Shown here: one piece after another, positions 17,441-57,162 of the stretch
How the letters are laid out: every line of letters begins with the position of its first letter
How positions within the stretch are numbered: the stretch's first letter is position 1
Assembly (NCBI GenBank): GCA_028723085.1
Contig: JAQYFP010000181.1
Coordinates: 2,053-66,052, forward strand
Reading direction: 5' to 3'
DNA: 64,000 nt
From: Erysipelotrichaceae bacterium
Lineage (GTDB): Bacteria > Bacillota_I > Bacilli_A > Erysipelotrichales > Erysipelotrichaceae
Notes under the pieces: generated by a model
Database searches by the model: none
The model's input: only the letters and a program-made list of their open reading frames with translations
What the model was told of the DNA's origin: nothing
Translations under genes and position numbers: made by a program

Positions 17441-18211
17441 TTAATCAATGAAATTCAAAAAAGACAAACCATTGTAAATTCCATCTTCATCAATATCACT
17501 TGTCACATAATTTGCTTTTGATTTCAACAAAGGAACGGCATTTCCCATGGCAATACTAAAACCGACCTTATCAAACATATCCATATCGTTTTCTCCATCT
17601 CCAAAGGCAAATGATTGATCAACAGGAATTTGATAAATATCTAAGAATTGTTGAATAGCTTTTCCTTTTCCACCATTATTAGAAACAATATCCACTGCAT
17701 AGGGATTCCATCTTGTGATTAAACAATCACTTAGTTTTTCTTTCAATTCTTTTTCTTCTTGTTCATTCACAAAAGCAATGCCTTGATAAATCACATTTTG
17801 TGTATACTCACTGATTCTAGGAACACTAGTATGAATACTTTCCTGGGCAAAGCGTACATAATCGTTTACATAATTAATATAGAATGTATTTTTTTCGAGT
17901 AATTGAATAGGAATTATATTATTTTCATATAAATGAATTAAATTTTTTAAATTATTTCCTTCAATGGGATTAGACCATACTTCTTTAAAATTATTATCTA
18001 AAATTAATTGTCCATTTAATAAAATATACGCATCAAATAAAGATAAAGGAAACTCTAGCTCTTTTAATTCTTCTATATGTCTTCCCGAACAAACAACACA
18101 GAAAATCCCTTTATTTCGAATTTGTTTAATCGCATTTATAGTACTATCTGGAATTTTGCCTATTTTATGGGAAATCAATGTCCCATCCACATCAAAAAAT
18201 ACTACTTTCAT
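17441..18211 (-). CDS. Cof-type HAD hydrolase
   Basis: FFDVDGTL, CSGR, FGDGENDMDM, AMGNA motifs. Confidence 0.9.
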   Translation of the reverse strand: MKVVFFDVDGTLISHKIGKIPDSTINAIKQIRNKGIFCVVCSGRHIEELKELEFPLSLFDAYILLNGQLILDNNFKEVWSNPIEGNNLKNLIHLYENNIIPIQLLEKNTFYINYVNDYVRFAQESIHTSVPRISEYTQNVIYQGIAFVNEQEEKELKEKLSDCLITRWNPYAVDIVSNNGGKGKAIQQFLDIYQIPVDQSFAFGDGENDMDMFDKVGFSIAMGNAVPLLKSKANYVTSDIDEDGIYNGLSFLNFID

Positions 18212-18217
18212 AGCTTT

Positions 18218-18226
18218 ATATTACCA
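18218..18226 (-). promoter_or_regulatory. Extended -10 placed for leaderless transcription of the Cof gene
   Basis: TGGTAATAT-aaagct-ATG (6 nt), no SD. Confidence 0.6.
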
Positions 18227-18231
18227 CAAAA

Positions 18232-18255
18232 AAAGAATGATTTGACTCATTCTTT
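18232..18255 (-). terminator. Terminator of metY-metA
   Basis: AAAGAATGA-gtcaaa-TCATTCTTT plus T-run. Confidence 0.7.
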
Positions 18256-19227
18256 AATAAAGGCTTGTGAATATCCATGTTCATTTCGTTTACTTGTTCC
18301 AATTGGATCCATAAACTGAATATTTTCAATATGATATGGTGTGACTTGATATACATAATTTAACCAATTTCGATACAATAAATTCGCATGGCTACGCCAA
18401 GTTAAAATTGGTTTATTATTAGGATCATCATTTATAAAATAATTTTCTGGTATATGAATCGGCTTATGCTCCTTAATATCTCTAAAATATTCTTGTGCTA
18501 GTGTTTCCACGCCATATTCAAAATGACCCGTTACAAATATTTGACGATAATCCTTTGTGACAATAATATTACTTCCTGTCTTTTCTCCCTTTGATAAAAC
18601 CACAAGACGCTTTTCCTTGGCAAGTGCTTCTTCATCTATTTTAGTGTGACGAGAATGTGGTGTATTGTGGTATTCATCAAATCCATTGGTTAAAAAATCA
18701 TATTCATCTTCTAAGTGATGAGGAAAAATCCCAAACATTTTTTCATCAAGTAATTGTTTTTGAATGCCATAGTGATAATACAAACCAGCTTGGGCTCCCC
18801 AACAAATATGCATTGTACTAAACACATGTATTTTTGACCATTCCATAATCTCACATAGACTATCCCAATAATCAACTTGTTCAAAATCCAAGTGTTCAAC
18901 GGGAGCTCCTGTGATAATCATGCAATCATAATAATTATCTAAGAACGCATGATAATCTTTATAAAATTTTACTAAATGGTCTTCACTTGTATTTTTTGAT
19001 TTATGTGCATCAATTTTCATAAAATCAATCGATACTTGTAAAGGAGATTTACTAATTAAACGAAGAATTTGGGTTTCCGTTTCTATTTTTTTAGGCATTA
19101 AATTTAAAATCACAAGTTGAATTGGACGAACTCTTTGTTTACGGGCACTATCATCTTCAATCGCAAAGATTTTTTCGTTTTCTAAAATGGTTTTGGCTGG
19201 TAAACCATTTTGTATATTAATTGGCAT
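18247..19227 (-). CDS. metA: Homoserine O-acyltransferase (MetA/HTS family, probably acetyl-specific)
   Basis: ILNLMPKKIETE, IITGAPVE, ICWGAQAGLY, PHSRH, VTGHFEY, WRSHANLL. Confidence 0.93.
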   Translation of the reverse strand: MPINIQNGLPAKTILENEKIFAIEDDSARKQRVRPIQLVILNLMPKKIETETQILRLISKSPLQVSIDFMKIDAHKSKNTSEDHLVKFYKDYHAFLDNYYDCMIITGAPVEHLDFEQVDYWDSLCEIMEWSKIHVFSTMHICWGAQAGLYYHYGIQKQLLDEKMFGIFPHHLEDEYDFLTNGFDEYHNTPHSRHTKIDEEALAKEKRLVVLSKGEKTGSNIIVTKDYRQIFVTGHFEYGVETLAQEYFRDIKEHKPIHIPENYFINDDPNNKPILTWRSHANLLYRNWLNYVYQVTPYHIENIQFMDPIGTSKRNEHGYSQAFIKE

Positions 19228-19232
19228 AGTGT

Positions 19233-20522
19233 CTAAATTTGATCAAAAGCTTGTTGAAGATCCGCTAAAATATCTTCAATGTCTTCGATTCCTACAGATA
19301 AACGAATTAAATCCGGTCCTACTCCACCAGCAATTAGTTCTTCATCATTCATTTGACGATGAGTACTACTAGCTGGGTGCAATACACATGTATGAGCATC
19401 CGCAACATGTGTGGCAATCATTGCGACTTTTAAGTGTCTCATGAATTCTTCAGCCTTTTTACGTCCACCTTTAATTCCAAATGAAACAACCCCACAAGTT
19501 CCATTTGGCATATATTTTTGTGCTCTTTCATAGTATTTATTCGAAGGAAGAGACGGATAATTTACCCAAGTTACTTTGTCATTAGCTTCTAAATACTCAG
19601 CTACTTTTAAAGCATTTTCACAATGTCTTGGCATACGAACATGCAAAGACTCTAATCCTAGATTCAACATATACGCATTCATAGGTGCTTGAATAGAACC
19701 AAAATCACGCATTAATTGCGAAGTACATTTGGTAATGAAGGCACCTTCTTTTCCAAATTTTTCGGCATACGTAACACCATGATAAGATTCATCTGGTGTA
19801 GTTAATCCTGGGAATTTATCGGCATGGGCCATCCAGTCAAAATGTCCACCGTCTACAATGCATCCACCTACGGTAGCATCGTGTCCGTCCATGTATTTTG
19901 TTGTAGAATGCGTAACGATGTCACATCCCCATTCAATAGGACGACAATTAATTGGTGTTGCGAAGGTATTATCCACAATTAAAGGAACACCATGTTCATG
20001 TGCTTTTTCAGCCCATGATTCAATATCAAAAACAATTAAAGCTGGATTGGCAATGGTTTCCCCAAAAACACATTTTGTATTTGGTCTAAAAGCCGCTTCC
20101 AATTCTTCCATTGAACAATCAGGTGAAAGGAATGTGAAGTCAATTCCCATTTTACGCATTGTCACATTAAATAAATTATAAGTTCCTCCATAAATAGAAG
20201 ACGAACAAATTACATGGTCTCCACAATTTGCGATATTAAATACTGCATAGAAATTAGCGGCTTGTCCACTACTTGTCAACATGGCAGCACTTCCACCTTC
20301 TAATTCACAAATTTTCTTAGCAACATAATCATTTGTTGGATTTTGAAGTCGGGTATAGAAATACCCATCTGCTTCTAAATCAAATAATTTACCCATATCT
20401 TCACTTGTATCGTATTTAAATGTTGTACTTTGTACAATTGGAATCATTCTTGATTCTCCATTTTTAGGTGAATACCCAGCTTGAATACATTTAGTACTCT
20501 GCTTCAATTCAATCATCTCCAT
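19233..20522 (-). CDS. metY: O-acetylhomoserine sulfhydrylase
   Basis: YTRLQNPT, VDNTFATP, HSTTKYMDGH (PLP lysine), HPASSTHRQ, IRLSVGIE; upstream of metA. Confidence 0.9.
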   Translation of the reverse strand: MEMIELKQSTKCIQAGYSPKNGESRMIPIVQSTTFKYDTSEDMGKLFDLEADGYFYTRLQNPTNDYVAKKICELEGGSAAMLTSSGQAANFYAVFNIANCGDHVICSSSIYGGTYNLFNVTMRKMGIDFTFLSPDCSMEELEAAFRPNTKCVFGETIANPALIVFDIESWAEKAHEHGVPLIVDNTFATPINCRPIEWGCDIVTHSTTKYMDGHDATVGGCIVDGGHFDWMAHADKFPGLTTPDESYHGVTYAEKFGKEGAFITKCTSQLMRDFGSIQAPMNAYMLNLGLESLHVRMPRHCENALKVAEYLEANDKVTWVNYPSLPSNKYYERAQKYMPNGTCGVVSFGIKGGRKKAEEFMRHLKVAMIATHVADAHTCVLHPASSTHRQMNDEELIAGGVGPDLIRLSVGIEDIEDILADLQQAFDQI

Positions 20523-20590
20523 TCTTTGTATTCTATTCTACAATAAACATCAAATTTTTTAAATTTATTATTTTATGATACTCTTTAACT

Positions 20591-23086
20591 ATGAGAAAAA
20601 AAGTATGTATTGGCATTTTAGCCCATGTTGATGCCGGTAAAACGACATGCATTGAAAGTATGTTGTATTTATCTGGTCAAATTCGTAAATTAGGACGAGT
20701 CGATCACCAAGATGCGTTTTTAGACTATGACAATCAAGAACGAAATCGTGGTATTACGATTTATTCAAAAGAAGCTCATTTTACTTGGAAATATACAGAT
20801 ATCTATGTCATTGATACTCCAGGTCACATTGATTTTTCAAGTGAAATGGAACGAAGCCTTCAAGTATTGGATTTAGCTATTTTATTAATTAATGGGCAAG
20901 ACGGTGTACAAAGTCATACCCAGACAATATGGAAATGCTTAGAACACTATCATGTTCCTACGCTTTGTTTCGTAAATAAAATGGATATTTCCTATCATTC
21001 AAAAGAAGATCTTTTATTAGACTTAACGAAGAAATGTCATTCCAATTGTATTGATTTTAACAATGATGATAAATTTGAAAAACTTGCTTTAGTAAATGAA
21101 GACTTATTAAATGAATACATTCAAAATGATTCCATTTGTACTGATTCCATCCAACAAGCCATCTATAAAAGAGAATGTTTCCCGGTATTCTTTGGAAGTG
21201 CTTTAAAATTAGAAGGCATAGAGCCATTAATGGATGCCATTAAACAATATTCCCTTGATTGTGAATATGGACAAGAATTTGGAGCGAAAGTTTATAAAAT
21301 ATCAAAAGACGAACAAGGAAATCGTCTAACGCATATTAAAGTCACAAGTGGTTGTGTAAAACCCAAACAAATCATTAATGAAGAAAAAATTGATCAAATT
21401 CGTTTATATAACGGTAAAAATTACACCATGCTCAATCAAGCCGATGCCGGTATGATTTGTGTATTAAAAGGATTGGAACACTTTGAGGTAGGACAAGGAA
21501 TGGGAATTGAAAAAGATAGTGAAAAACCTCTTTTAAATGCGTATTTAAACTATCAGCTTGTCCTTCCAAGTGGCATTGATCCTTTACAGATGATGAAAAC
21601 ATGTGACTTGTTGTGTAGCCAAGATCCACAATTAAATATTGAATACGAATCTCAATCTAAAAAAATTAATGTTCAATTAATGGGAGACATTCAAATGGAA
21701 GTTCTCCAAAATCGCATTGAAAAAGAAACAGGAATTAAAGTTGGTTTTACTACAGGAAATGTCATTTATAAAGAAACAATTACTGAACCCGTTTATGGAG
21801 TAGGACACTTTGAGCCTTTACGTCATTATGCCGAAGTTCATTTAAAATTAGAACCTCTTCCACGAAATAGTGGACTTCAATTTGAAAGCGATGTTTCCAT
21901 GGATTCTTTAGCTTTAAACTGGCAAAGATTGATTCTAACACATCTTCAAGAAAAACATCATAAAGGTGTTTTAACTGGTTCCTATATTACGGATATGAAA
22001 ATCACATTGGTAGCTGGTAAAAGTCATCTAAAACATACAGAAGGTGGTGACTTTAGACAAGCTACGTATCGTGCCGTTCGTCAAGGTTTAAAGAAAGCAC
22101 ATTCTATTTTATTAGAGCCCTATTATTCATTTAATCTTACTTTGGATTCCAATTCTTTATCAAAGGCTCTATATGATTTAGAATGTCGTCATGCCACAGT
22201 TACTATTGAAGACCACTTAGATGGAACTTTCACTGTATCAGGTAGAGGTCCTGTGCGTCTATTGATGAATTATCAAAATGATGTAGTTGCGATGACAAAA
22301 GGAAAAGGTGTCTTTACTTGTCAGTTAGATGGCTATGATGAATGTGTTGATGCCGATAAAATCATTGAAGAAATTGGTTATGATAGTGAACAAGACTTTA
22401 AAAATCCTACGGGATCCGTTTTCTGTACCCATGGTTCTGGTTTCTATGTTCCTTATGATGAAGTTGAAGAATACATGCACATAAAACCAAAAAGTGAAAG
22501 TACAAGTCAATCGTATTCAAGTCGTAAATATACAATTGATGAACAAGAAGTACAGCGTGTTTTTAATATGATTTCGGGTCAGAATAAGAAAAAGGAAGAA
22601 AAGAAACCAAAAAAGAAAACCGATATTTCATATCAATCTGTTACGGTTAAGGAAAAACTACCTGAGTGTTTAATTGTAGATGGCTATAATCAAATATATG
22701 GATGGGATTCTTTAAAAGAATATGCTCATAGTGAAATTGACTATGCCCGTTCGGTTTTAATTAGTGCTCTACAAAATTATCAAGGATATAAAAATATAAA
22801 AGTAATCTTAGTATTTGATGCGTATCGTGTTAAAGATTCTACAAGTCGTAATTCTAAATATGGAGATATGGAAGTCATTTATACAAAATATGGACAAAGT
22901 GCTGATAGTTATATTGAAAAGCTAGTTCATGACTACAAAGGAAAATATAAAATGGTTGTTGCCAGTTCCGAGGGTTTAATTCAAAATTCTATTCTTGCCA
23001 GTGGTGCCATTCGCATGAGTGCAAGAGAATTAGAGTGTCGAGTCAATAGTGTCAACCAACAAGCATTTAACTCATTAAAAAAATAA
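20591..23086 (+). CDS. EF-G/TetM-like translational GTPase fused to a C-terminal NYN (YacP/Rae1-like) nuclease domain
   Basis: G1 AHVDAGKT, RGITI, DTPGH, NKMD; EF-G-like domains IV and V (HYAEVHLKLEP, LLEPYY); C-terminal LIVDGYN..VFDAY..SADSYIEK..GAIRMSAREL. Confidence 0.85.
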   Translation: MRKKVCIGILAHVDAGKTTCIESMLYLSGQIRKLGRVDHQDAFLDYDNQERNRGITIYSKEAHFTWKYTDIYVIDTPGHIDFSSEMERSLQVLDLAILLINGQDGVQSHTQTIWKCLEHYHVPTLCFVNKMDISYHSKEDLLLDLTKKCHSNCIDFNNDDKFEKLALVNEDLLNEYIQNDSICTDSIQQAIYKRECFPVFFGSALKLEGIEPLMDAIKQYSLDCEYGQEFGAKVYKISKDEQGNRLTHIKVTSGCVKPKQIINEEKIDQIRLYNGKNYTMLNQADAGMICVLKGLEHFEVGQGMGIEKDSEKPLLNAYLNYQLVLPSGIDPLQMMKTCDLLCSQDPQLNIEYESQSKKINVQLMGDIQMEVLQNRIEKETGIKVGFTTGNVIYKETITEPVYGVGHFEPLRHYAEVHLKLEPLPRNSGLQFESDVSMDSLALNWQRLILTHLQEKHHKGVLTGSYITDMKITLVAGKSHLKHTEGGDFRQATYRAVRQGLKKAHSILLEPYYSFNLTLDSNSLSKALYDLECRHATVTIEDHLDGTFTVSGRGPVRLLMNYQNDVVAMTKGKGVFTCQLDGYDECVDADKIIEEIGYDSEQDFKNPTGSVFCTHGSGFYVPYDEVEEYMHIKPKSESTSQSYSSRKYTIDEQEVQRVFNMISGQNKKKEEKKPKKKTDISYQSVTVKEKLPECLIVDGYNQIYGWDSLKEYAHSEIDYARSVLISALQNYQGYKNIKVILVFDAYRVKDSTSRNSKYGDMEVIYTKYGQSADSYIEKLVHDYKGKYKMVVASSEGLIQNSILASGAIRMSARELECRVNSVNQQAFNSLKK

Positions 23087-23103
23087 GGCCTGCGCCTTAT
23101 TTT
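23080..23103. terminator. Bidirectional terminator
   Basis: AAAATAAGGC-ctgc-GCCTTATTTT. Confidence 0.8.
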
Positions 23104-23106
23104 TTT

Positions 23107-23928
23107 TTATAGATCTTCAAAACCAATAATTAATCCACCTGCTTCAGCATAGAAACTACATAATCCTTTACATGTTCCTATTTCAATTTGTGCTGATGGG
23201 AATTCATTTAAAATTGCTTCCTTTAATTGATTTGCCAATTCTTCATTATATACATGATCAATTCGAAGTTTCTTTCCTTTATATCCTAATTCACTAATTG
23301 TTGATACTAAAGTTTTAATTGTTTTCTTTTGTCCTCTTGCCTTAGAAATAACTTCGATTGTTCCTTGATCGCTTGCTTTTCCGATAAGACGAATTCCAAT
23401 TAAAACAAGTCCTTTAGCTAATATAGGATTAATACGACCATTGTTTGCTAAGTTTGTCACAGATTCAAGAGCAAATAATAAATGAGTATGTTTTTGATAT
23501 TCATGAACACTATCCACAACTTGTTCAAAAGTTATTCCTGATTCAGCGCATTCAATGATTTTTTGAATAATCAACATCATTTCTGCTCCTGTACTTAAAG
23601 AATCAAAGATTTCAATTTTTTTATCTGGGAAATCTTGCTTGGCAATACAAGCTGCATTATAGCTTCCTGATAAATTGGAACTAATTGTTACACCAAAACC
23701 ATAGTCAGCTCCTTCAAAAGCTTCCATCCATTCTCCTGCATTTGGACATGATGTTGAACTTTTACTTGTTAAGGATTTTAAGTCATCCACCATTTCTTTT
23801 ACATTTAAATCAGGATTATCAATATACTCTTTATTTTCTGTACGAATGCGTAAAGGAACACTTTGATAAGGAACATCTTTTAGAAAATACTCATTTGATG
23901 ATGAATCCGATACAATTTTATAATTCAT
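23107..23928 (-). CDS. DegV family fatty-acid-binding protein
   Basis: KIVSDSS, STSCP, TISSNLSGSYNAA, FDSLS, LANNGRI. Confidence 0.9.
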   Translation of the reverse strand: MNYKIVSDSSSNEYFLKDVPYQSVPLRIRTENKEYIDNPDLNVKEMVDDLKSLTSKSSTSCPNAGEWMEAFEGADYGFGVTISSNLSGSYNAACIAKQDFPDKKIEIFDSLSTGAEMMLIIQKIIECAESGITFEQVVDSVHEYQKHTHLLFALESVTNLANNGRINPILAKGLVLIGIRLIGKASDQGTIEVISKARGQKKTIKTLVSTISELGYKGKKLRIDHVYNEELANQLKEAILNEFPSAQIEIGTCKGLCSFYAEAGGLIIGFEDL

Positions 23929-24037
23929 ATTTAATACCTCTCACCATCATATTAAAAGTTATTGATTATGTTGTCAAGAGTTTTTGAAAAACCTTTAAAA
24001 AGATATTCAATAGTGTTATAATTGATATGGTGATAAC

Positions 24038-24559
24038 ATGAATCAAAAAATTCAAGATGAAATAAGAAACTTTTATTTTCCTTCTTATCAGGAAATACCT
24101 GATGTTGGTTTATATTTAGAACAAACAACAGATTACATTAATGCGATTTTATTTCCCTTAACAAATGAAAAAATCACAAAATCAATGATTAGTAATTACG
24201 TAAAAAAAGGACTAATTTCTAGTCCTATAAAGAAAAAATATAATCGCGATCAAATCGCTATTTTAATTTATTTAGCATTAGCCAAGACCATTGTTTCATT
24301 AGAAGACATTCAATTATTACTTGAATTAAAAGATTTATCTTATGACAATCAAACGGCTTTTGATTATTTTAAAGTTGAATTTGAAAATGTTTTACATTAT
24401 GTATTTGGAATTAAAGACTCGCTTGATAGTGTTGGAAAAGATGATACGTATCCTAAGTCTTTACTTCGTAGTACCATTATTGCCTTTGCGCATAAAATAT
24501 ATCTTAATAAGAGTTTTAAACTTCTTCATGAACAAATGGAATCATCCTCTAAATTGTAA
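24038..24559 (+). CDS. DUF1836 (MerR-like HTH) protein
   Basis: EIPDVGLYLEQ..ITKSMISNYVKKGLI..P.KKKYNRDQIA pattern. Confidence 0.8.
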   Translation: MNQKIQDEIRNFYFPSYQEIPDVGLYLEQTTDYINAILFPLTNEKITKSMISNYVKKGLISSPIKKKYNRDQIAILIYLALAKTIVSLEDIQLLLELKDLSYDNQTAFDYFKVEFENVLHYVFGIKDSLDSVGKDDTYPKSLLRSTIIAFAHKIYLNKSFKLLHEQMESSSKL

Positions 24560-25001: not shown

Positions 25002-25748
25002 TTACACCACACTAAATACCACAAACACACCCAAGGCAATCGCTCCAGCACACACAAATGTTTCCATAATTCTTGATACTCCTGATAAATAGTCTCCAGC
25101 AATGGTATCTCGAATCGCGTTGGTAAAAGCTAATCCTGGCACCAACAACATAATTCCGGAAACAATTAAAATATTCACATCCATTGATGGTACTAGATCC
25201 ACCGCAACGATGGAAAGAAATGCCAATACGATTGATGCCAATACGTTATTAATAAAGTCATTCATTTTCATCATACTTAAAAAACTAATTAATAAACGAA
25301 CCACAACTCCAATTAAAAAAGAAGTAATAATTTCTAAAAGTCCACCTTCAAAGAATAAAGCAAAGCCTGCGGCTCCAATTCCTCCAAATAATGTTGTCAT
25401 CCAAATTGAATATTTAGGTTCTTTTTCAATTCGGTCTAAGTAAGAAGAAATTTCATCTAATGTATAATCATGTTTTTGAACATCTCGACTCAGCGCATTA
25501 ATACGAACCACACAGTTTAAATTCACATTACGACTACGAACACGACAAATCTTAGAGAAAACTTGTCCTTCATATCCAATCGATAACATAATTCCTGTTG
25601 AAGTCACATAGCTATCTACTTCTTGGGTATTGGCTAAAGCTGTACAAATACGAATCATCGTATCTTCTACACGATAAACTTCAGCTCCACTTTCTAATAA
25701 TAAACGCCCTGCTCTCGTTCCAATATCTAATAATTTTTCTATTTCCAT
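25002..25748 (-). CDS. Threonine/serine exporter ThrE family
   Basis: GRLLLESGAEVYRVEDTMIRI, IMLLVPGLAFTNAIRD. Confidence 0.88.
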   Translation of the reverse strand: MEIEKLLDIGTRAGRLLLESGAEVYRVEDTMIRICTALANTQEVDSYVTSTGIMLSIGYEGQVFSKICRVRSRNVNLNCVVRINALSRDVQKHDYTLDEISSYLDRIEKEPKYSIWMTTLFGGIGAAGFALFFEGGLLEIITSFLIGVVVRLLISFLSMMKMNDFINNVLASIVLAFLSIVAVDLVPSMDVNILIVSGIMLLVPGLAFTNAIRDTIAGDYLSGVSRIMETFVCAGAIALGVFVVFSVV

Positions 25749-25754
25749 GCGACT

Positions 25755-25763
25755 AGTATAACA
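25755..25763 (-). promoter_or_regulatory. Extended -10 placed for leaderless transcription of thrE
   Basis: TGTTATACT-agtcgc-ATG (6 nt), no SD. Confidence 0.65.
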
Positions 25764-25788
25764 TAAAAAACACATAAAAAAAGAAGTT

Positions 25789-26286
25789 CTATTTTCCAGA
25801 ACTTCCTAATCTTCCATCCATTCGTTTAGATTCAATTTGTTGTAGCTGATCATATGAAAGTGTTTCACATTCTAATTGTGGCATTTGTACTAAAACACCT
25901 TGGCATACAGCTTTTTCATATGGATAAATGATAAATTGTGCTTTTTGTGTTTCATCCCATTGTGCTAATATTTCTTTTTTCACAATACGAATGGGTTTGT
26001 CATTTACATTTGTGATAGGAGCCATATATTCCCCACGATAACCAGAATCAATAACACCCGCTCTTTGTGCCATTCCTTTGGTTCCCGTTGAACCTCTTTC
26101 CTTCAACAACATTACATAGTGTTCATCAAAAGCACTAGCAACCCCCAAAGGTACTAAGACAGTGTGTAGTGGTTGAATTTCTAAGTAGTCTTGTTCAAAA
26201 CATGGATATAAATCATATCCCGCATCTTCGTTTCGTTTACTTGGGATAATGGCTTGTTCTTTTACTTTTGCCCAATATAATTTCAT
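25789..26286 (-). CDS. dut: Trimeric dUTPase
   Basis: AGYDL, ERGSTG, GVIDSGYRGE, R..GRLGSSG motifs. Confidence 0.88.
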   Translation of the reverse strand: MKLYWAKVKEQAIIPSKRNEDAGYDLYPCFEQDYLEIQPLHTVLVPLGVASAFDEHYVMLLKERGSTGTKGMAQRAGVIDSGYRGEYMAPITNVNDKPIRIVKKEILAQWDETQKAQFIIYPYEKAVCQGVLVQMPQLECETLSYDQLQQIESKRMDGRLGSSGK

Positions 26287-42136: not shown

Positions 42137-42945
42137 GCACTCCATATCGTATTTAACACAACTGCTAAAATAATAACAGCTGAACCACATAACGCATAAG
42201 CTCCTACGGTTTCTCCATAAAATAAGAATACCCAAATTGGATTCATTACCGCTTCTAATAAACCAATTAAAGAAGTAGTAACAGGATTGGTAAGCTTAGA
42301 TCCTTTAGAGAAGAAAATATAAGCCAATCCAACTTGGAAAACACCCAAACAAAGTAAAGAAATTATCGATGTTGTATTGCCATAATCAATTTGATTTAAG
42401 AATGGAATCGAAATCAAAAACGACAACAAGAAACCTAACATACTAGCGTCTTCACTACTTGCCTTTGGTAAAGAGTTAATAAAGAACACTCCTGAGAAAC
42501 TAAGTCCTGCACAAATCGCAAGACAATTTCCAATAAGTTTTCCACCATCAATTTGATCAAAAAAGAATAATACCATTCCTGAAAAAGCCATGACAACTAA
42601 TAAGAATTCTCTTGTTGATGGTAACTTCTTTTTATATAGACAATCCCATATCAATACAAAAATGGGAGCTAAATATTGTAATACAATGGCATTGGCTGCA
42701 GTCGTCATTTTATTTGCCATAACATACAACGTATTGGTCAACATTAAACAAATTCCTGCGGATACAACATAGCGATTGATCTTGATTTTAAGTCCTTTCT
42801 TATAAATAAAAAATAAAATTAAAGCTATTAAAGATCGTGCTCCATTAATCGCAATGGGATTTCCTGTGATATATTTGATTAATATACCACCTGTAGACCA
42901 CAAAAAAACCGTAATTAAAATATATACATACCCTCTATTTTTCAT
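42121..42945 (-). CDS. EamA/DMT family transporter
   Basis: About 10 TM segments, LWSTGG, AANAIVLQYLAPIF, LLEAVMNPIW. Upstream TGATAAAAT, 7 nt, ATG with no SD. Confidence 0.88.
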   Translation of the reverse strand: MKNRGYVYILITVFLWSTGGILIKYITGNPIAINGARSLIALILFFIYKKGLKIKINRYVVSAGICLMLTNTLYVMANKMTTAANAIVLQYLAPIFVLIWDCLYKKKLPSTREFLLVVMAFSGMVLFFFDQIDGGKLIGNCLAICAGLSFSGVFFINSLPKASSEDASMLGFLLSFLISIPFLNQIDYGNTTSIISLLCLGVFQVGLAYIFFSKGSKLTNPVTTSLIGLLEAVMNPIWVFLFYGETVGAYALCGSAVIILAVVLNTIWSAKEAN

Positions 42946-42971
42946 AGAAAAAATTTTATCAAAAACATTTT

Positions 42972-43559
42972 CTATTTACAATAACACTTTAAAACCCAAT
43001 ATCCTTTATCTCTTACAATTCTTTCCACAACACATCCCTTTTCTTCTAAATAATTCATAGCACTTTGAGCACCGTGTTGTTTACGAATCACAATATATAA
43101 ATTTCCTTTTAAGTGTTCAATGCATTGATCAAATAAAGAATAAATTACTTTTTTTCCTGTTCGAATAGGAGGATTTAATACAATGCAATCAAACATTCCA
43201 TCTTCTGTACAAATTCCATCTTGGCATTTAATTGTAGCTTTACAATGATTGTTTTTAATATTTTGCGAAGCTAAAGAAACCGCTCTTTCATTAATATCAA
43301 TCATCATGATTTCACTGTTCCAATTCGAAGCTAAAACAACTCCCACTGGACCAATTCCACATCCTAAATCTAGACAACGAGATGGATTTTTTTCTTCTTT
43401 TAATACACTTTCTAATAATATTTTTGTTCCCGTATCTAATTTATCTTTTGAAAATACGCCTGTATTTGATTGAAGTTGATATTCTTTGTTTTGAATTGTG
43501 AAATGAATTTGTATTGGTTCATCTTTTAAATTTTTATCATTTTCAAAATATTGACTCAT
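42972..43559 (-). CDS. Class I SAM-dependent methyltransferase, RsmC/YbxB-like
   Basis: MSQYF, GVFSKDKLDTGT, LDLGCGIG, DINERA, NPPIRTGK. Confidence 0.88.
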   Translation of the reverse strand: MSQYFENDKNLKDEPIQIHFTIQNKEYQLQSNTGVFSKDKLDTGTKILLESVLKEEKNPSRCLDLGCGIGPVGVVLASNWNSEIMMIDINERAVSLASQNIKNNHCKATIKCQDGICTEDGMFDCIVLNPPIRTGKKVIYSLFDQCIEHLKGNLYIVIRKQHGAQSAMNYLEEKGCVVERIVRDKGYWVLKCYCK

Positions 43560-43565
43560 GGCTTG

Positions 43566-43574
43566 ATTATACCA
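43566..43574 (-). promoter_or_regulatory. Consensus extended -10 placed for leaderless transcription
   Basis: TGGTATAAT-caagcc-ATG (6 nt), no SD. Confidence 0.7.
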
Positions 43575-43576
43575 AA

Positions 43577-43602
43577 TAAAAAAGAGGATATACAATCCTC
43601 TT
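43577..43602 (-). terminator. Terminator of glgB
   Basis: AAGAGGAT-tgtat-ATCCTCTT plus T-run. Confidence 0.65.
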
Positions 43603-50040: not shown

Positions 50041-50054
50041 AAATTACTCCTAAG

Positions 50055-51236
50055 TTACAAGTTGTATTGTATCATAAACAAATTCGAATTCACACTAAAA
50101 TGTTCTACATCACAACCGATTTCCGGTACAAAAATAATGTGCTTTTCTTTATTTTCAACAACCAGCCAATTTTGTCTAATATGTCTAGGAATTTTACGAT
50201 CAATAAAAAAGCGATGGATGTTTTTGGTTCCAAATCGTAATTGAATACAATCTTTTTCTTGTACATTTCGAATTACCAATGGAAAATCATTTTCACTTAC
50301 TTTCATTCCTTCAATTGTTTTTCCAGAATCCAATAATTTAAATCGATCAAATTCTTGGTAGATTAACGAATCCAATTGAACATAAACGTTCTCTTTTCTT
50401 TTGCCACAATACAATTGATTTTGATATCGTTCTAAATAATATTCATTTAATTCAAGATAAATATCTTTTTTTAATTTTTCACATAAATCCAATAAATGCT
50501 TTCTAGATAAATGTATATTCATATATTGATATAAATATACATCTAAATAAAACCAGTTATCAGACAAGGAAATCAAATCATCTACTTTAAAAGATTGAAG
50601 AAAATACAATGCTTCTTTTCTTTTTTGATTTAAAGCTTCATTTTCAACTTTAATTTGATCACAAATCTTTAATTTATCTTCTTTTGTCATAAAGTCAATT
50701 TGACTGTGACGAATTTTATTACGTGTATAATCATTTGTTAAGTTGGATTCATCGATTCCATAACAAACATGGTGTTGAATACAATATTGTTCTAATTCCT
50801 TTTTCGTATAAGACAATAAAGGACGCACAATTTCATATTCATTTCGGTTCATTTTTTCTTGAAGTCCATATGCATCGCACAACATATGACGATTCTTTTG
50901 AAAGAAATAAGTTTCAATGTGATCATCCATATGATGAGCTACATAGATTTCTTTACAATGGTATTGTTGACATAACGATTCAAAAAAATGATAACGAACA
51001 TTTCTAGCCCAAGCTTGAAAGTTATCACTGTGATCATATATTGGTTTAAGCACATGAAGTAACAATTGATTTTGTTCACAATATTCTTTTACGTATTCTT
51101 CATCTCGAAGGGCACTTTCTCTTTTTTGATAATTCACATGGGCTACTACAATATTATATATATGTTTTTGATTCATCATGTCTAACAGAGCCATACTATC
51201 GGGTCCACCAGAACAAGCTATAATAATTGTTTTCAT
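50055..51236 (-). CDS. tilS: tRNA(Ile)-lysidine synthetase
   Basis: SGGPDSMAL PP-loop, AHVNY..R, ARNVRY, AHHMDD, RPLL, DESN..YTRNKIR; tilS-hpt-ftsH order. Confidence 0.93.
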   Translation of the reverse strand: MKTIIIACSGGPDSMALLDMMNQKHIYNIVVAHVNYQKRESALRDEEYVKEYCEQNQLLLHVLKPIYDHSDNFQAWARNVRYHFFESLCQQYHCKEIYVAHHMDDHIETYFFQKNRHMLCDAYGLQEKMNRNEYEIVRPLLSYTKKELEQYCIQHHVCYGIDESNLTNDYTRNKIRHSQIDFMTKEDKLKICDQIKVENEALNQKRKEALYFLQSFKVDDLISLSDNWFYLDVYLYQYMNIHLSRKHLLDLCEKLKKDIYLELNEYYLERYQNQLYCGKRKENVYVQLDSLIYQEFDRFKLLDSGKTIEGMKVSENDFPLVIRNVQEKDCIQLRFGTKNIHRFFIDRKIPRHIRQNWLVVENKEKHIIFVPEIGCDVEHFSVNSNLFMIQYNL

Positions 51237-51242
51237 GGAAGA

Positions 51243-51251
51243 ATGATAACA
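51243..51251 (-). promoter_or_regulatory. Extended -10 placed for leaderless transcription of tilS
   Basis: TGTTATCAT-tcttcc-ATG (6 nt), no SD. Confidence 0.65.
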
Positions 51252-51278
51252 AAAAAAAGGGTATTTATCCAATACCCT
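51251..51278 (-). terminator. Terminator after the PemK/MazF-like gene
   Basis: AGGGTATT-ggata-AATACCCT plus T-run. Confidence 0.7.
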
Positions 51279-51792
51279 CGTGAATTCTTTGTTTGATAGC
51301 TAAAAATAAAGGACTATCAACGGGAATATGTGCTTTTACATCAATAATTCTTGATGAATTGATCCATTTTGAATCATTTAAATAACACGCACTGACTTTA
51401 CTCATTCCTTCTATTTTACCTAGCTGCATAATATGGTCTTTTCCATAAATCACTTTTGAATTTGCTCCCGTAATGGGTACTACAAATACTTTTCCTCTTT
51501 GAATTGATAAAATCAAACCAAAGTGTAAATACCCAATTTCAAATAAATAAGAATGTCCAAAATCAATGTAACAAATATCCCCGCAACGAATATTCACATT
51601 TAAATCCTGACAAGAAAAAACTTCTTTTCTTCGACAGTAATTTAGTTTAGAAACCATATAATCAAATACTTCATTTTCTGATAACGAATTACATAATTCA
51701 TTTTCTTCTTTTTCTGCCTGCTTTTTTAGAAGTTCTAATTTCTGGTTTTTTAAAACAGTTTGTTTATTCATCATCCATTCTTTTGGTTCCAT
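51265..51792 (-). CDS. PemK/MazF-like fold protein with N-terminal extension
   Basis: RCGDICYIDFG..EIG..HFGLILS..VFVVPITG..SACYLNDSKWINSSRI follows the PemK pattern (G-D-I..DF, VVPIT, I..SRI). Confidence 0.6.
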   Translation of the reverse strand: MEPKEWMMNKQTVLKNQKLELLKKQAEKEENELCNSLSENEVFDYMVSKLNYCRRKEVFSCQDLNVNIRCGDICYIDFGHSYLFEIGYLHFGLILSIQRGKVFVVPITGANSKVIYGKDHIMQLGKIEGMSKVSACYLNDSKWINSSRIIDVKAHIPVDSPLFLAIKQRIHEGIG

Positions 51793-51798
51793 GCATCT

Positions 51799-51807
51799 AT
51801 GATATCA
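51799..51807 (-). promoter_or_regulatory. Extended -10 placed for leaderless transcription of the PemK-like gene
   Basis: TGATATCAT-agatgc-ATG (6 nt), no SD. Confidence 0.6.
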
Positions 51808-51835
51808 ATATAAAATTATAAATATCTTATAATTG

Positions 51836-52906
51836 TTAATGAAAATAAAATTTTGCTTTAAATTTAGTTACTTTTTCTTTGATACGACGATGTAAACTCA
51901 ATAACGGATGAAATTTCTCATTAATCATTCCCGATTTTTCAATAAATAATTCTATTCCCAACAATAAAATTAAAATAACAACTAAACCAATGGCACGATT
52001 CAACATATAAATAAAAGCACTTAAACCAAATAAAGCAGTAATGGCACACATAATGATAACGGTATTGCCATGCCCAAATTGTTTCATCAATAAATGATGA
52101 AGATGACTTTTATCTGCTTGCATGAACTTCATTCCTTTTAAGGTTCGTCTTAATATAGCCGATAAAGTATCAATAATAGGAAGCATCAACAATAAAATAG
52201 GAAGTCCTAAGGTCACAATGGTTGAACTTTTAAATCCTAATAAAGAAATAGCAGAAATCATAAATCCCAAAAATAAAGATCCACAATCTCCCATGAAAAT
52301 ACTTGCTGGATGGGCATTATATACTAGAAAACCAAAAGTTGCACTGGCTAAGATGAACGTAATTGTCACTACATCAATGCGTCGTTCGACTAGGGCAAGA
52401 CATCCTATGACAATTAAAATCACAACGCTCATTCCACCTGCTAATCCATCTAATCCATCAATTAAATTAACGGCATTGGTAATACCGGCAATCCAAATAA
52501 TTGTGAATAAAACAGTGATAATAGGAATATTAATGGCAAATCCAAATACACGAATCACATCAACGGATACACCATAATAAATCAATACAATGGCTGCTAT
52601 GATTTCAAGGACAAGTTTAACGCTTGCTTTTAAGTCCACTAAATCATCAATTAATCCCGCAAAGAACATGATACTTCCACCTATGATAATTCCATCCAAG
52701 GCTCGATCACATGACACAAACAAAGCCATGGTAATCATAAACGCCAAGTAAATCGCAACTCCACCAATACGACTGATTTTACCATGGTGAACGGTTCTTT
52801 CGTTTTCCTGGGCATAGGATTTCGCAATTATTGAGTATCGTTTTATCACTGGGGTAAGGCATATGCTTAAAACCAGTGGCACTATAATAATTTTATAATC
52901 AATCAT
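51836..52906 (-). CDS. tagO: Undecaprenyl-phosphate GlcNAc-1-phosphate transferase (TagO/WecA)
   Basis: RIGGVAIY, GLIDD, NAVNLIDGLDGLA, IFMGDCGS, ADKSHLHHLL. Confidence 0.9.
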   Translation of the reverse strand: MIDYKIIIVPLVLSICLTPVIKRYSIIAKSYAQENERTVHHGKISRIGGVAIYLAFMITMALFVSCDRALDGIIIGGSIMFFAGLIDDLVDLKASVKLVLEIIAAIVLIYYGVSVDVIRVFGFAINIPIITVLFTIIWIAGITNAVNLIDGLDGLAGGMSVVILIVIGCLALVERRIDVVTITFILASATFGFLVYNAHPASIFMGDCGSLFLGFMISAISLLGFKSSTIVTLGLPILLLMLPIIDTLSAILRRTLKGMKFMQADKSHLHHLLMKQFGHGNTVIIMCAITALFGLSAFIYMLNRAIGLVVILILLLGIELFIEKSGMINEKFHPLLSLHRRIKEKVTKFKAKFYFH

Positions 52907-53819
52907 TTCGTCTTTCCTTCATTTTATTCATAATATCGTATTGTGGTGTATTTGTGCAAATGATTGGACATTTGAGTTCATATTTCAAATAAGGTTGTAA
53001 TCCAAAACAATTTGCCAAGCCCCCACTTAAATAAATACCATTTTCTAATATTTTTTCTTGTAGTTCTAATGAACAAGTTGAAATCATTTGTTTGGTCCAT
53101 AAAATAATTTGTTTTTCTACTGCTTCAATACAAGGCCATAAATCCATCGAAGATACTTGCACTTTTTCATATTGATTGTATTTATTCATTCCAAAACAAG
53201 ACAATTTCGCATTTTTATTTTTTAGTAAACTCTTAGAACATGCTTCTTTCAACATACGAGCATCTTCCATAGAAATAAAACACTTTGTTTTCTTTAAAAC
53301 AGTTTGCACAATAGCTTCATCAATTTGATATCCCGCAAAAGGAATCACCTTTTGAAACGATTGTTTGCCATCAATGTTTAATCCAATCAAAGTATAAGAA
53401 TGACCCAAATGAATATAAAAATGAATGTGTTCTTTCATTAAATCCGCAATTGTAATAAATTCAACACGATAAATTCCTAATTCCTTGGCATAAGAAATCC
53501 ATTTTTGTTCTTCTTGTTGACTTCGATTCAATAAACAAATCAATACACATGGACGCTTCCATATATGTTTTTCAATATTTAATCCATATTTTAATAATGG
53601 CATAATATCTGATAGGATTTTACCTTCACAAAATGGATACTTTACTTTAATTGAATTATTTCGATGGTATACGTATTCTGTAGCTTGCGAGGCAACGGAT
53701 ACAACTTCATTATTTTTATACGCAATAATGCTTTGAAATTGTATTAATTCATCTTTTGATTCATCAAAAATCCGAATTTGATATGCACCGGCATCGATTA
53801 TATACCATCTATTGAACAT
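52899..53819 (-). CDS. Divergent MreB/Mbl-like actin-fold protein
   Basis: IIDAG (phosphate 1), PFAGYQIDEAI..A..LKE, GIYLSGGLANCFGL (adenosine motif); other ATPase motifs degenerate. Confidence 0.7.
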   Translation of the reverse strand: MFNRWYIIDAGAYQIRIFDESKDELIQFQSIIAYKNNEVVSVASQATEYVYHRNNSIKVKYPFCEGKILSDIMPLLKYGLNIEKHIWKRPCVLICLLNRSQQEEQKWISYAKELGIYRVEFITIADLMKEHIHFYIHLGHSYTLIGLNIDGKQSFQKVIPFAGYQIDEAIVQTVLKKTKCFISMEDARMLKEACSKSLLKNKNAKLSCFGMNKYNQYEKVQVSSMDLWPCIEAVEKQIILWTKQMISTCSLELQEKILENGIYLSGGLANCFGLQPYLKYELKCPIICTNTPQYDIMNKMKERRND

Positions 53820-53821
53820 AC

Positions 53822-54031
53822 TTATCCTCCAAATCCATTAAATATCGTCAAATCAAGAATGGCTTGTGTTGATAAATACGCAAGCACAAAAGAAAGTAAA
53901 AACATTAAAGTAATGACTTTTCCACTCTTTTGAACTTTACAAATTTTTTCAAATTGAATGGAAGAACAAGCATATACACTAACAATAAAACATAGAACAA
54001 AGACAATGTACTTCACAAGTGAGTAAATCAT
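53822..54031 (-). CDS. Small membrane protein, DUF1146/YwzB-like
   Basis: 69 aa, two TM segments, SIQFEK..K..LMFLLSFVLAYL pattern. Confidence 0.6.
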   Translation of the reverse strand: MIYSLVKYIVFVLCFIVSVYACSSIQFEKICKVQKSGKVITLMFLLSFVLAYLSTQAILDLTIFNGFGG

Positions 54032-54867
54032 TTTCTTCCTCCAATCGATACTAATTTCACAAAATTATATTTCTTTTCTAATTCTTTTTGCGCTTTTTCT
54101 AAAATAGAAATATCTTTAGAAAATCCCATCATTGTTGAACCAGAACCAGACATCATAACTCGTTCGATGCCACATTGTTCCATATCATTTTGAATGGCAT
54201 TTAAAATCGGTTCCATTTCTTTGGCTACTGGTTCTAAGGTATTATTCATAACTTTAAATAACGAAGAAATATCTTTTTGTTCGATTGTTTCTTGAATTAA
54301 ATTCACATCCACTGACAATGGCTTTTGTTCATGCCATTTTTTAAAAGCTACAGGAGTTGAAATCCCTACTTCTGGTTTAACAAGTAGACAAGGTAAAACT
54401 AAATCCGTATCAATGGGTTTAATGATTTCTCCAATTCCTTGTACTCTTGCCCATTGGCTATAGACACAAAAAGGTACATCGGCTCCAATTTGTTTGGCAA
54501 GAGATAATTGTTGTTCAAAAGAAATCGATAATTGTTCCATTTCCATAATGGCTTTTAAAACAGCTGCCGCATCGGTAGATCCCCCAGCCATTCCTGACAT
54601 CATAGGAATATTTTTATGAATTTTCACATGAAAACAAGAAGAAATAGAATATTCTTTTTTTAATAATTGAATCATTTTTGATACGGTATTATTTTCTGGA
54701 ATCGCATATGTATCACATTCTACTTTATCTTGTGAACTATATACAATTTCAATTTCATCGTATAAAGAAGTCGGTGCCATAATCATATCTAAATCATGGT
54801 ATCCATTTTCCATAACACCTACTATATCAAGTGCTAAATTAACCTTAGCATATGCTCTAACAATCAT
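54028..54867 (-). CDS. ispE: 4-diphosphocytidyl-2C-methyl-D-erythritol kinase
   Basis: AYAKVNLALD, GYHDL, KNIPMMSGMAGGSTDAAA, IGADVPF, MSGSGST. Confidence 0.93.
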   Translation of the reverse strand: MIVRAYAKVNLALDIVGVMENGYHDLDMIMAPTSLYDEIEIVYSSQDKVECDTYAIPENNTVSKMIQLLKKEYSISSCFHVKIHKNIPMMSGMAGGSTDAAAVLKAIMEMEQLSISFEQQLSLAKQIGADVPFCVYSQWARVQGIGEIIKPIDTDLVLPCLLVKPEVGISTPVAFKKWHEQKPLSVDVNLIQETIEQKDISSLFKVMNNTLEPVAKEMEPILNAIQNDMEQCGIERVMMSGSGSTMMGFSKDISILEKAQKELEKKYNFVKLVSIGGRK

Positions 54868-55717
54868 AATATCCCTTTCCCACTTCATATAAACGAATAA
54901 AGTCTTCTAATGTACATTGTTGTGCACGCGTAGATGGTTCAATATTCGCTTGAATTAAAAGATTTTTAGCTAATTCTTTGTCTTTAACAAAATCTTGGAA
55001 GTTATTATAGATTGTTTTTCGTCTTTGTGTAAAACATGATTTGACCATCTTAAAGAACACATCTTCATTTTCTAAGCGATATTTATGATGAAAAGAAAAT
55101 TGGACAACCATTGAATCTACATTTGGTTTAGGCCAGAATACGTGACGTGAAACATCCATCACTTTTTTCACATCACAACGATATTGAGTAATAACACTTA
55201 GAGCATTGTATTCTTTTTCGTTTTCTTTAGCCAAGAAGCGTTCTCCCACTTCCTTTTGCATCATGACCGTAATTCTTTCAATTTTTTCTTTTGCTTCAAA
55301 CAACTTAAACAAAATTGGTGTTGTGATATAGTAAGGCAAATTTGACGCGAATACGACTTTTTGGTTTTCTTTTCGATATTTTTGAATTTGTTGATCAACA
55401 TCCACTTTCATAAAATCTTGTAAAATAACTTCTAAATGATCAAAACCAATTTCATTTTCTAAAACCATTGGCAAGCGATCATCAATTTCAAACGCAACCA
55501 CGTGATTGCTTCTTTCACATAAACACTGTGTTAAAGCACCAATTCCTGGACCAATCTCAAAGACAAGTTCATCTGGGCTTTCAATAGCTGCTTGAGCTAT
55601 TTTTTCAACGACTTTAGGTTCGATAATAAAATTTTGTCCATATGTTTTCTTTGTGAATACATTATATTTTTCTTGAATTTCTTTTGTTTTTTTAATTGTT
55701 GCGATTCGCTGATTCAT
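54857..55717 (-). CDS. rsmA: 16S rRNA adenine dimethyltransferase
   Basis: GQNF, EIGPGIGALT, FEID, SNLPYYITTP, VMMQKEV, F.P.PNVDS. Confidence 0.96.
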   Translation of the reverse strand: MNQRIATIKKTKEIQEKYNVFTKKTYGQNFIIEPKVVEKIAQAAIESPDELVFEIGPGIGALTQCLCERSNHVVAFEIDDRLPMVLENEIGFDHLEVILQDFMKVDVDQQIQKYRKENQKVVFASNLPYYITTPILFKLFEAKEKIERITVMMQKEVGERFLAKENEKEYNALSVITQYRCDVKKVMDVSRHVFWPKPNVDSMVVQFSFHHKYRLENEDVFFKMVKSCFTQRRKTIYNNFQDFVKDKELAKNLLIQANIEPSTRAQQCTLEDFIRLYEVGKGYYDC

Positions 55718-56240
55718 TTAACTTTTCCTCGATTTCTTGTTTGGAAACATTCATTCCATTTAATCTTTTAAAACATGTTTTACCGTTGCATGGTCCAATA
55801 TGGAAAAGCTCACAAACTTTAAAACGCTTTTGTGAATTTCCCATTAATCCTAAATCTATAAATTCATCAAATGATAAACTTTCTTGTTGGTTAATAAAAG
55901 TAACACAGTTCATTAAAGAATCCCATAAATCTTCTTTACTTGCGTGTTCCACTCCTACTTTTTTTTCTGTGCGTGCTTTTTTCTTATCAATAAACGCATT
56001 TTTACATCCTGGTACATATTCATTTATTTGACGGCGAATGTGTTCTCCTGGTGTATCGGGATCGGTAAAGATAATAACGCCTCTTTTTTCTTGTGCATAT
56101 TTTACTCTTTGAAGCGTAGTTTCATTTACTTGATCGCCTCCTGTTTCAATGGTGTCACATTGAAAATAGGTTTGTAATGTATTGGTATCGTTTTTTCCTT
56201 CGACAACGATGATTTCTTTAATTTTATTATTCAAGTCCAT
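55692..56240 (-). CDS. rnmV: Ribonuclease M5
   Basis: Toprim EIIVVEGKND, IIFTDPDTPGEHIR, GVEHAS; upstream of rsmA. Confidence 0.93.
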   Translation of the reverse strand: MDLNNKIKEIIVVEGKNDTNTLQTYFQCDTIETGGDQVNETTLQRVKYAQEKRGVIIFTDPDTPGEHIRRQINEYVPGCKNAFIDKKKARTEKKVGVEHASKEDLWDSLMNCVTFINQQESLSFDEFIDLGLMGNSQKRFKVCELFHIGPCNGKTCFKRLNGMNVSKQEIEEKLNESANRNN

Positions 56241-57090
56241 ATGTAAATCCCTCACCATGTACTTCGTTCACATTATTTACGATAATAAATGCCGACGAAT
56301 CAATTTCCATAATTTTTGATTTTAATAACGATAATTGTTTTTGTTTAATTACACACATCACAACAGGATGATATTGTTCTGTATATCCGCCAATTCCATC
56401 TAAAATGGTAACGCCTCTTTCCATTTCATTAACTAAGTAATTACGAATATCAATCCATTTATCGGATATAATCATACAATTCAAAGCATTTTCTGTTCCT
56501 AATAATACAGCACGATTAATTGCTACACTTGATGTGAAAACCGATAAAATTCCAATTAAAGCTGGCTCTAAGCCATGGATGACTAGACCCAACAAAATTG
56601 TCAAAACATCAATAATAGCTACACTATTTCCACTAGAAATATGAGTATATTTATGTAAAATCAAAGCTGGAATATCCATTCCTCCTGTGCTCGCATTTAC
56701 TCTAAAACAAATTCCTAATCCCAATCCACAAATTAAACCCGCATAAATAGATGCCAAGTATGGTTCCATGATAAAGGTTCCTTTTGGAAATAAGTCATAG
56801 ACAATTGAAAATATAGAAATGCCCACTGGATAAACAATCGTTGATAATAGCGTTCTTGCCGCAAATTGTTTTCCCAAAAACAAAAATCCGAGCAAAAATA
56901 AACTAACCGTTAAAATATCAATTAATATTACAGAGTCAATCGGAACCAATGGCTGTATGGCAACAACAACTCCGGCAACTCCACCTGTTAAAATATTATT
57001 AGGTAATATAAAAAAGGATACTGCTATTGCTACCAGTAAATTTCCAAATACAATCATTAAATATTCAAATATTTTATTTTTATTCTCCAT
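56227..57090 (-). CDS. YitT family membrane protein
   Basis: ILTGGVAG, ASTGGMDI, RGVT..G.GGYT, DSSAFIIV..VNEVHGEGF. Confidence 0.9.
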   Translation of the reverse strand: MENKNKIFEYLMIVFGNLLVAIAVSFFILPNNILTGGVAGVVVAIQPLVPIDSVILIDILTVSLFLLGFLFLGKQFAARTLLSTIVYPVGISIFSIVYDLFPKGTFIMEPYLASIYAGLICGLGLGICFRVNASTGGMDIPALILHKYTHISSGNSVAIIDVLTILLGLVIHGLEPALIGILSVFTSSVAINRAVLLGTENALNCMIISDKWIDIRNYLVNEMERGVTILDGIGGYTEQYHPVVMCVIKQKQLSLLKSKIMEIDSSAFIIVNNVNEVHGEGFTYGLE

Positions 57091-57162
57091 ATCAAAAAGA
57101 TTATATCATTATTTTTAATTTGATGGTATTCTTTAAATAAGAGTGAAGAAAGGAGAAAAATT

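Follow-up and report, generated by a model that had tools for sequence, protein, structure and literature searches.

Probable leaderless genes with promoter boxes set directly before the start codon in a genome of the Erysipelotrichaceae

The stretch of DNA considered here, 64,000 nucleotides from an Erysipelotrichaceae bacterium (the window; contig C181:2053-66052 of a 1.89-Mb assembly in 184 contigs with 31.8% GC), contains a recurrent type of gene start in which a promoter-like box, TGnTAnnnT, stands 6 or 7 nt before an ATG that lacks a Shine-Dalgarno (SD) site. A preliminary description of the window had pointed to eight starts of this kind, two of them weak, in the genes for a Cof-type HAD hydrolase, ThrE, an EamA transporter, an RsmC-like methyltransferase, TilS, a 175-aa protein, MetY and YitT, and had proposed that the lineage uses leaderless initiation for a sizeable class of genes. 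All eight are present on the minus strand at the ATGs named there, and the recurrence of the same architecture throughout the genome makes it highly probable, as far as DNA sequence can tell, that such genes are transcribed from sigma-A promoters as leaderless mRNAs without an SD site. Leaderless starts are very probably real in this organism and partly conserved in its relatives; the mechanism and the motif are already known, and it is the lineage that is new for them.

This conclusion is carried above all by the position of the box relative to the start codon. The genome reads well with genetic code 11, and 1816 genes were predicted in it with a home-made gene and start caller. The spacing d is the number of nucleotides between TAnnnT (or TGnTAnnnT) and the start codon, with phase-matched spacings as background, and an SD site is a match of at least 4 nt to AAGGAGGTGAT at -20 to -4. 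By this definition SD sites are absent from all eight listed starts and present in 54 of the 66 predicted genes of the window and in 84% of genes genome-wide, in agreement with the earlier statement that most other genes carry one. The genome-wide histogram of TAnnnT-to-start distances that had been suggested as a check rises sharply at 6 nt, for ATG only, and has a minor second peak at 7 nt. Across the whole genome, TGnTAnnnT precedes an ATG opening at least 100 codons 62 times at d=6, as against 6-7 times at d=0, 3, 9 and 12, and of the 15 ATGs that follow TGnTATAAT at d=6, 14 open a long open reading frame (ORF). Among the candidate starts of the 1816 genes, TGnTAnnnT-6-ATG occurs 53 times for 4.4 expected (Poisson P about 4e-38) and plain TAnnnT-6-ATG 171 times against 101, and the extended-box peak is confined to ATG (ATG 53, GTG 1, TTG 0). 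Of 521 genes with unambiguous starts, 116 have no SD site; among these 116, TAnnnT lies at exactly d=6 in 34 (background about 4) and TGnTAnnnT in 17. No pair among the 53 sites is more than 60% identical, so that the count is not inflated by a repeat family. In 400-kb samples from each of two other genomes of the same class, whose GC content is 30-34%, 2 sites occur at d=6, whereas 422 kb of the present genome contain 14. The positional peak is not an artefact of composition.

The leaderless class excluded every gene with an SD site of at least 5 nt at any candidate start in the first quarter of its ORF. By this classification of our own, 107 genes (5.9%) have the leaderless architecture, as do 67 of the 769 first-in-unit genes (8.7%), and the background-corrected excess comes to about 80-100 genes. 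The class would thus comprise roughly 80-110 genes, or 4-6% of all genes and about 9% of first-in-unit genes. At nearly all of its sites the SD match length is 0. A further 170 genes have neither an SD site nor a -10 box.

Features that formed no part of the search pattern point in the same direction. Extended -10, or TRTG, promoters recognized by sigma-A in Gram-positive bacteria use TG at -15/-14 and T at -17 in place of a weak -35 element. The extended-box sites here, with TG at -15/-14, have T at -17 in 79% of cases and a weak -35 region; where TG is absent, the profile T65 T74 G56 A56. A53 at -35 to -30 describes a TTGAnA -35 box at 17-bp spacing. A pyrimidine occupies -1 at 42/43 and 32/34 sites (94-98%), compared with 63% of SD genes (P = 1e-7), and C is found there in 58% of sites versus 12%. 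A pyrimidine at -1 followed by a purine at +1 is a general signature of transcription start sites (TSSs), recurring at the mapped starts of every phylum examined (PMC4782308). Moreover, a hairpin with a T-run lies upstream of 37% of the sites, as against 14% of SD-led first genes (P = 3e-4). The called starts are themselves supported by Pfam, as profile position 1-3 aligns within residues 1-10 in most members of the class. These unselected features fit a sigma-A promoter whose +1 would be the A of the ATG; the -35 box, the TRTG motif and the pyrimidine -1/A +1 signature, along with the genome-wide peak and the conservation in orthologues described below, all argue for the sizeable leaderless class that had been proposed. 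The coding sequences of the class also differ from those of SD genes: AAA follows the start codon in 44% versus 20% (P = 5e-6), the first codons after the ATG are A-rich (+3 to +8), and the codon-typicality score is lower (0.32 versus 0.41).

The simplest mechanism consistent with these observations would begin at sigma-A (sigma-70-type) promoters, mostly of the extended -10 form (TRTGnTAnnnT), that should need little or no -35 box. With the -10 hexamer at -12 to -7 from the A of the ATG, RNA polymerase would start at that A or within 1 nt of it, and the resulting mRNA would have neither a 5' leader nor an SD site. By analogy with leaderless mRNAs that have been studied experimentally, the 5'-terminal AUG may be bound directly by the ribosome together with initiator tRNA. 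Many genes of the class lie just downstream of their neighbour's terminator, in very compact junctions of terminator, promoter and ATG.

Such junctions can be followed in the window, where RNA folds of the 45 nt upstream of the start modules place a hairpin of -8.6 to -12.0 kcal/mol and a T-run immediately 5' of TGnTAnnnT at four sites, those of Cof, thrE, the rsmC-like gene and tilS. The Cof start module, at 18209..18226 on the minus strand, reads TGGTAATAT-aaagct-ATG (spacer 6 nt, A at 18211, no SD site), and directly 5' of its -10 box lies a terminator-like hairpin (-8.6 kcal/mol) with a T-run at 18228..18255. That of thrE, at 25746..25763 (minus strand), reads TGTTATACT-agtcgc-ATG (spacer 6 nt, A at 25748); here a hairpin of 11 pairs (-12.0 kcal/mol) and a T-run at 25774..25807 were found both by the fold and by a terminator scan (25807..25781). 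The rsmC-like gene, encoding an MTS-domain methyltransferase, starts with TGGTATAAT-caagcc-ATG at 43557..43574 on the minus strand (spacer 6 nt, A at 43559), preceded by a hairpin (-11.5 kcal/mol) and T-run at 43576..43602. In tilS, the first gene of tilS-hpt-ftsH, the module TGTTATCAT-tcttcc-ATG occupies 51234..51251 (minus strand, spacer 6 nt, A at 51236), and the hairpin (-11.4 kcal/mol) with its T-run, at 51252..51279, holds in its loop the stop codon with which the upstream 175-aa gene ends. Between the end of that gene and the tilS ATG there are 28 nt in all, and the terminator-like hairpin lies there. For thrE, the rsmC-like gene and tilS, the preliminary description had regarded the predicted ORFs as over-extended, and this is borne out: the longer starts at 25775, 43595 and 51272 would span the -10 box and the terminator T-run, and both Pfam domains and orthologue N-termini favour the shorter ones. 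The terminator scan was useful in this DNA (13 sites versus 3.9).

The remaining listed starts are somewhat more varied. The EamA module, at 42943..42961 on the minus strand, has a spacer of 7 nt (TGATAAAAT-tttttct-ATG, A at 42945) and lies 26 nt past the stop of the rsmC-like gene. The 175-aa gene (51265-51792, minus strand) has TGATATCAT-agatgc-ATG at 51790..51807 (spacer 6 nt, A at 51792). The two cases that had been listed as weak remain so. At metY (20520..20538, minus strand; A at 20522), TAGAAT stands 7 nt before the ATG, a further TAGAAT overlaps it, displaced 5 nt upstream, and position 1 of the Pfam Cys_Met_Meta_PP profile aligns at residue 9. At yitT (57088..57108, minus strand; A at 57090), TGATATAAT is separated from the ATG by 9 nt, and the mRNA probably has a leader of about 2-3 nt. 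As for the gene labels, Pfam confirms the Cof-type HAD hydrolase, ThrE, EamA, the MTS-domain methyltransferase, TilS, the MetY-type PLP enzyme and YitT, with profiles beginning at residues 4-10 (for Cof, Hydrolase_3 position 1 at residue 4). The exception is the 175-aa protein, which had been called PemK-like and matches no Pfam family at E <= 0.001, the PemK/MazF profile included, and no NCBIfam family.

One further site of the window was absent from the earlier list. On the plus strand at 20576..20593, TGATACTCT stands 6 nt before an ATG (A at 20591) that opens a gene of the leaderless class and lies 68 bp from the divergent metY ATG at 20522. The product of this gene (20591-23086, plus strand), 831 aa long, joins a Tet(M)/EF-G-like translational GTPase (GTP_EFTU, EFG_III/IV/C), below every NCBIfam cut-off, to a YacP-type NYN nuclease domain at its C-terminus. 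A relationship between the two 831-aa ORFs of the window was considered and rejected, the second being AddB-like. Elsewhere in the genome, at C114:4152-4196, two divergent genes have 43 bp between their ATGs, each of which is preceded by TGGTAAAAT at 6 nt, so placed that the extended -10 boxes are 13 bp apart. These distances, 43 bp for the C114 pair, 68 bp for metY and the GTPase gene and 28 nt for tilS after the previous gene, leave no room for leaders. The DUF1836 gene (start region 24014-24040, plus strand; gene at 24038), for which overlapping candidate promoters, TGTTATAAT and TGATATGGT, are found together with an SD-like GGTGAT, was dropped as a member because this SD-like sequence and the second promoter, TGTTATAAT, 15 nt upstream, leave it ambiguous between a leaderless start and a short leader.

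Comparison with related genomes shows how far individual starts of this kind are conserved. FtsH of the window genome shares 88% identity with its counterpart in Floccifex porci, the closest named relative, and the remaining close matches are all from Erysipelotrichaceae (Holdemanella, Faecalitalea, Faecalicoccus, Absicoccus, Catenisphaera, Allobaculum). In 22 of 25 tilS loci of the family, TAnnnT is found 6-7 nt before the aligned ATG, and an SD site in none; across these loci the information content is 1.1 bit both for the unselected TG and for C at -1, and less than 0.5 bit for the spacer positions -6 to -2. The architecture is likewise kept in 6 of 7 genera with true rsmF orthologues, and in 6 of 11 family orthologue loci of the rsmC-like gene, where 2 others have an SD site instead (Allobaculum among them). 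Orthologues thus retain the box as the sequence of the spacer drifts. EamA in F. porci has TGTTAGAAT-7-ATG, and thrE has TATACT-6-ATG in 6 loci of the same genus.

In two other genera (L033, L035), the thrE TATACT is the same and stands before a leader of about 20 nt that carries an SD site (GAGG); in F. porci, yitT likewise retains TGATATAAT, and the leader behind it, about 25 nt long, contains GGAGG. For yitT and tgt (L001, L120) the same contrast between leader and leaderless forms appears in reverse or at genus level. In all three genes, thrE, yitT and tgt, one -10 box comes with an SD-bearing leader of 20-25 nt in one genus and abuts the ATG in another, and leaders seem, from these alignments, to have been gained or lost behind an unchanged promoter. 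The leaderless state of Cof looks species-specific, in a comparison limited to the closest matches and confounded by about 23 paralogues per genome. At the 175-aa gene, the two closest relatives alone show a canonical TAnnnT. This gene is conserved just 5' of tilS across the family (L003-L025), and in more distant genera two conserved elements precede its start, TTTGnTTnAAT at 6 nt from the ATG (T for A at -11) and a block resembling GTCAT-N6-GGTCAC; this may be an operator or an unusual promoter.

A broader survey, crude and with small counts per genome, compared TGNTATAAT-N6-ATG with the same box at N9: 546 versus 253 in 61 family genomes, and 1162 versus 893 in 185 other genomes of the class (P = 7e-9). 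The signal is uneven among the 61 family genomes (G000-G060), with a ratio of at least 3 in 20 and of at most 1 in 17. Between genera, N6:N9 counts of 17:0, 21:0 and 17:1 stand against 2:8 and 3:12. The use of leaderless starts seems on this survey to differ within the family.

Several points weigh against reading these genes as leaderless. What is observed is a -10 box 6 nt before an ATG, and everything beyond it, including the transcription start and the mode of translation, is inferred. The caller makes errors: it mis-set the start of metY, and a site that it placed at 54813 is internal and false. At d=7 the extended box is weakly enriched (26 versus 17, P = 0.03) and the plain hexamer shows no excess, so that EamA and metY are individually less certain. 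Finally, 23 of 55 extended-box genes lie no more than 60 nt behind a gene on the same strand, and upstream transcripts could also cover them. This proximity lends something to the alternative that survives best, itself quite improbable, in which the genes are expressed from promoters further upstream as leadered or polycistronic transcripts and translated independently of SD pairing, the A/T-rich hexamer serving, as in SD-poor lineages, to keep the initiation region free of structure or to act as an enhancer of the S1 type. The 170 genes with neither an SD site nor a -10 box imply that some initiation independent of SD pairing must occur in this genome. An enhancer, however, would need no exact TAnnnT at a fixed 6 nt, no TG at -15/-14 or T at -17, no TTGAnA at 17 bp and no pyrimidine at -1, and it would show no specificity for ATG; moreover, hairpin and T-run terminators separate the upstream gene from the four window sites described above.

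It is less probable still, to the point of being very unlikely, that the starts are mis-called, with the true start downstream (or upstream) under an SD site of its own and the -10 box belonging to a normal promoter with a short leader. Two starts, those of yitT with its 9-nt spacer and of the DUF1836 gene, are genuinely ambiguous in this respect. The class as a whole was built to exclude genes with an SD-bearing candidate start early in the ORF, the Pfam profiles of most members begin near the called start, and orthologue N-termini align at the proposed M1. Chance, whereby favourable cases would have been picked from the many TAnnnT of a genome with 32% GC, can claim a generic two-hexamer promoter scan that proved uninformative in AT-rich DNA, finding 52 sites against 51.9 in shuffles, so that a single plain TAnnnT match means little, but it is refuted by the excess at one spacing, the SD-less gene set, the control genomes of the same GC and the conservation in orthologues, and retains next to no probability.

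The preliminary description had noted RNA-modifying enzymes among the products of these genes. Pfam searches with the 43 extended-box d=6 genes identify 7-8 of this kind: TilS, RsmF, the RsmC-like protein, a member of the tRNA_U5-methyltransferase family (RlmCD/TrmA-like), TGT, a protein with PP-loop and rhodanese domains (TtcA-like), a SpoU methylase and a small MTS-like methyltransferase. Other members are housekeeping proteins and enzymes (HolA, a FolC-like ligase, FtsW/RodA, YaaA, CorA and several HAD hydrolases), or have regulatory, cell-wall or mobile-element functions, with cell-wall hydrolases found alongside a cI/LexA-like repressor (HTH_3 + Peptidase_S24; C91, g1377) and an IS DDE transposase (C14, g1509). 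Enrichment in RNA-modifying enzymes is not significant at 7-8/43 versus 2/40 (Fisher P = 0.09-0.16) against a small and non-random control of 40 non-leaderless window genes, whose two RNA modifiers are MiaB/MtaB-like and Dus; it is suggestive, not established. That a leaderless regulon, with enzymes for maturation of the translation apparatus at its core, has been conserved in Erysipelotrichaceae is a speculative proposal, and an unlikely one. Were it true, synthesis of these enzymes would depend on leaderless initiation of the 70S- or IF-dependent kind, so that it would follow the condition of the ribosome pool and not SD pairing, and the repeated gain and loss of a leader behind an unchanged promoter, as in thrE, yitT and tgt, would be an evolutionary switch between the two regimes.

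Some consequences are more immediate. Gene callers that take the longest ORF or require an SD site would mis-set about 5% of starts in Erysipelotrichaceae, among them three in the window (thrE, the rsmC-like gene and tilS). With the present results, the lineages known to have a substantial leaderless class would come to include a family of Firmicutes that is common in the gut. They also suggest that the leaderless state of a single gene can remain stable across a family, the clearest case being tilS, and that a switch between leaderless and SD-led forms may require only the gain or loss of about 20 nt downstream of an unaltered promoter. None of this would alter how leaderless initiation is now understood; it would extend that understanding to a further lineage.

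Among known systems, the classical leaderless mRNA is that of phage lambda cI. The gene for a cI/LexA-like S24 repressor (C91) falls in the leaderless class here, which brings that mRNA to mind; unlike the lambda cI and extended -10 paradigms, which concern single promoters, the present case is a genome-wide class. Of the features by which bacterial leaderless genes are recognized, three are found in it: a -10 peak at a fixed distance of 6-8 nt, no SD site and an AUG start, a 5'-terminal AUG being required in most bacteria. The pyrimidine at -1 gives indirect support to a primary 5' end that would coincide with the start codon, and intact, conserved ORFs together with the Pfam N-termini favour translation from the predicted 5'-terminal AUG. 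A full-text literature search for "leaderless" with "Erysipelotrichaceae" returned nothing relevant.

Large scale predictions provide a second comparison. In the portion of the GeneMarkS-2 study considered here (Lomsadze et al. 2018; PMC6028130), group C, with 25-50% leaderless operons predicted, is that of Actinobacteria and Deinococcus-Thermus and takes in 36 of 1064 Firmicutes. The present genome resembles group C in having a Pribnow box 6-8 nt from first-gene starts, mixed with SD-led genes, and differs in the leaderless share, which by our own classification and not by GeneMarkS-2 is the 67/769 given above; it would probably fall in the SD-dominant group A. Zheng et al. 2011 (PMC3160421), in the part of that survey drawn on here, predicted a leaderless "TA-like signal" in 56 of 209 Firmicutes, with a mean of 4.2% of genes, concentrated in Lactococcus-Streptococcus and in Mycoplasma. 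Their signal in low-GC genomes is the same, a TAtAAT lying some 10 nt ahead of the start and accompanied by a strong TG peak; the two clades they name there do not include Erysipelotrichaceae, and the present analysis adds unselected promoter features and conservation gene by gene.

The closest parallel is with the streptococci. Leaderless mRNAs had been described beforehand as rare in model Firmicutes, which holds for some models and not for these: 70 operons (9%) are leaderless in Streptococcus pneumoniae D39, where a luciferase reporter test was made with pbp2a (PMC6212727), and 8.6-9% in S. pyogenes and S. agalactiae, with 81% conserved between the two species (PMC6431027). The streptococcal starts come from TSS mapping, whereas those of the Erysipelotrichaceae are inferred from DNA. 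In both cases a low-GC Firmicute with SD sites at most of its genes begins about 9% of its transcription units (an estimated 8.7% of first-in-unit genes here) at the ATG, and in both a subset of these is conserved between relatives.

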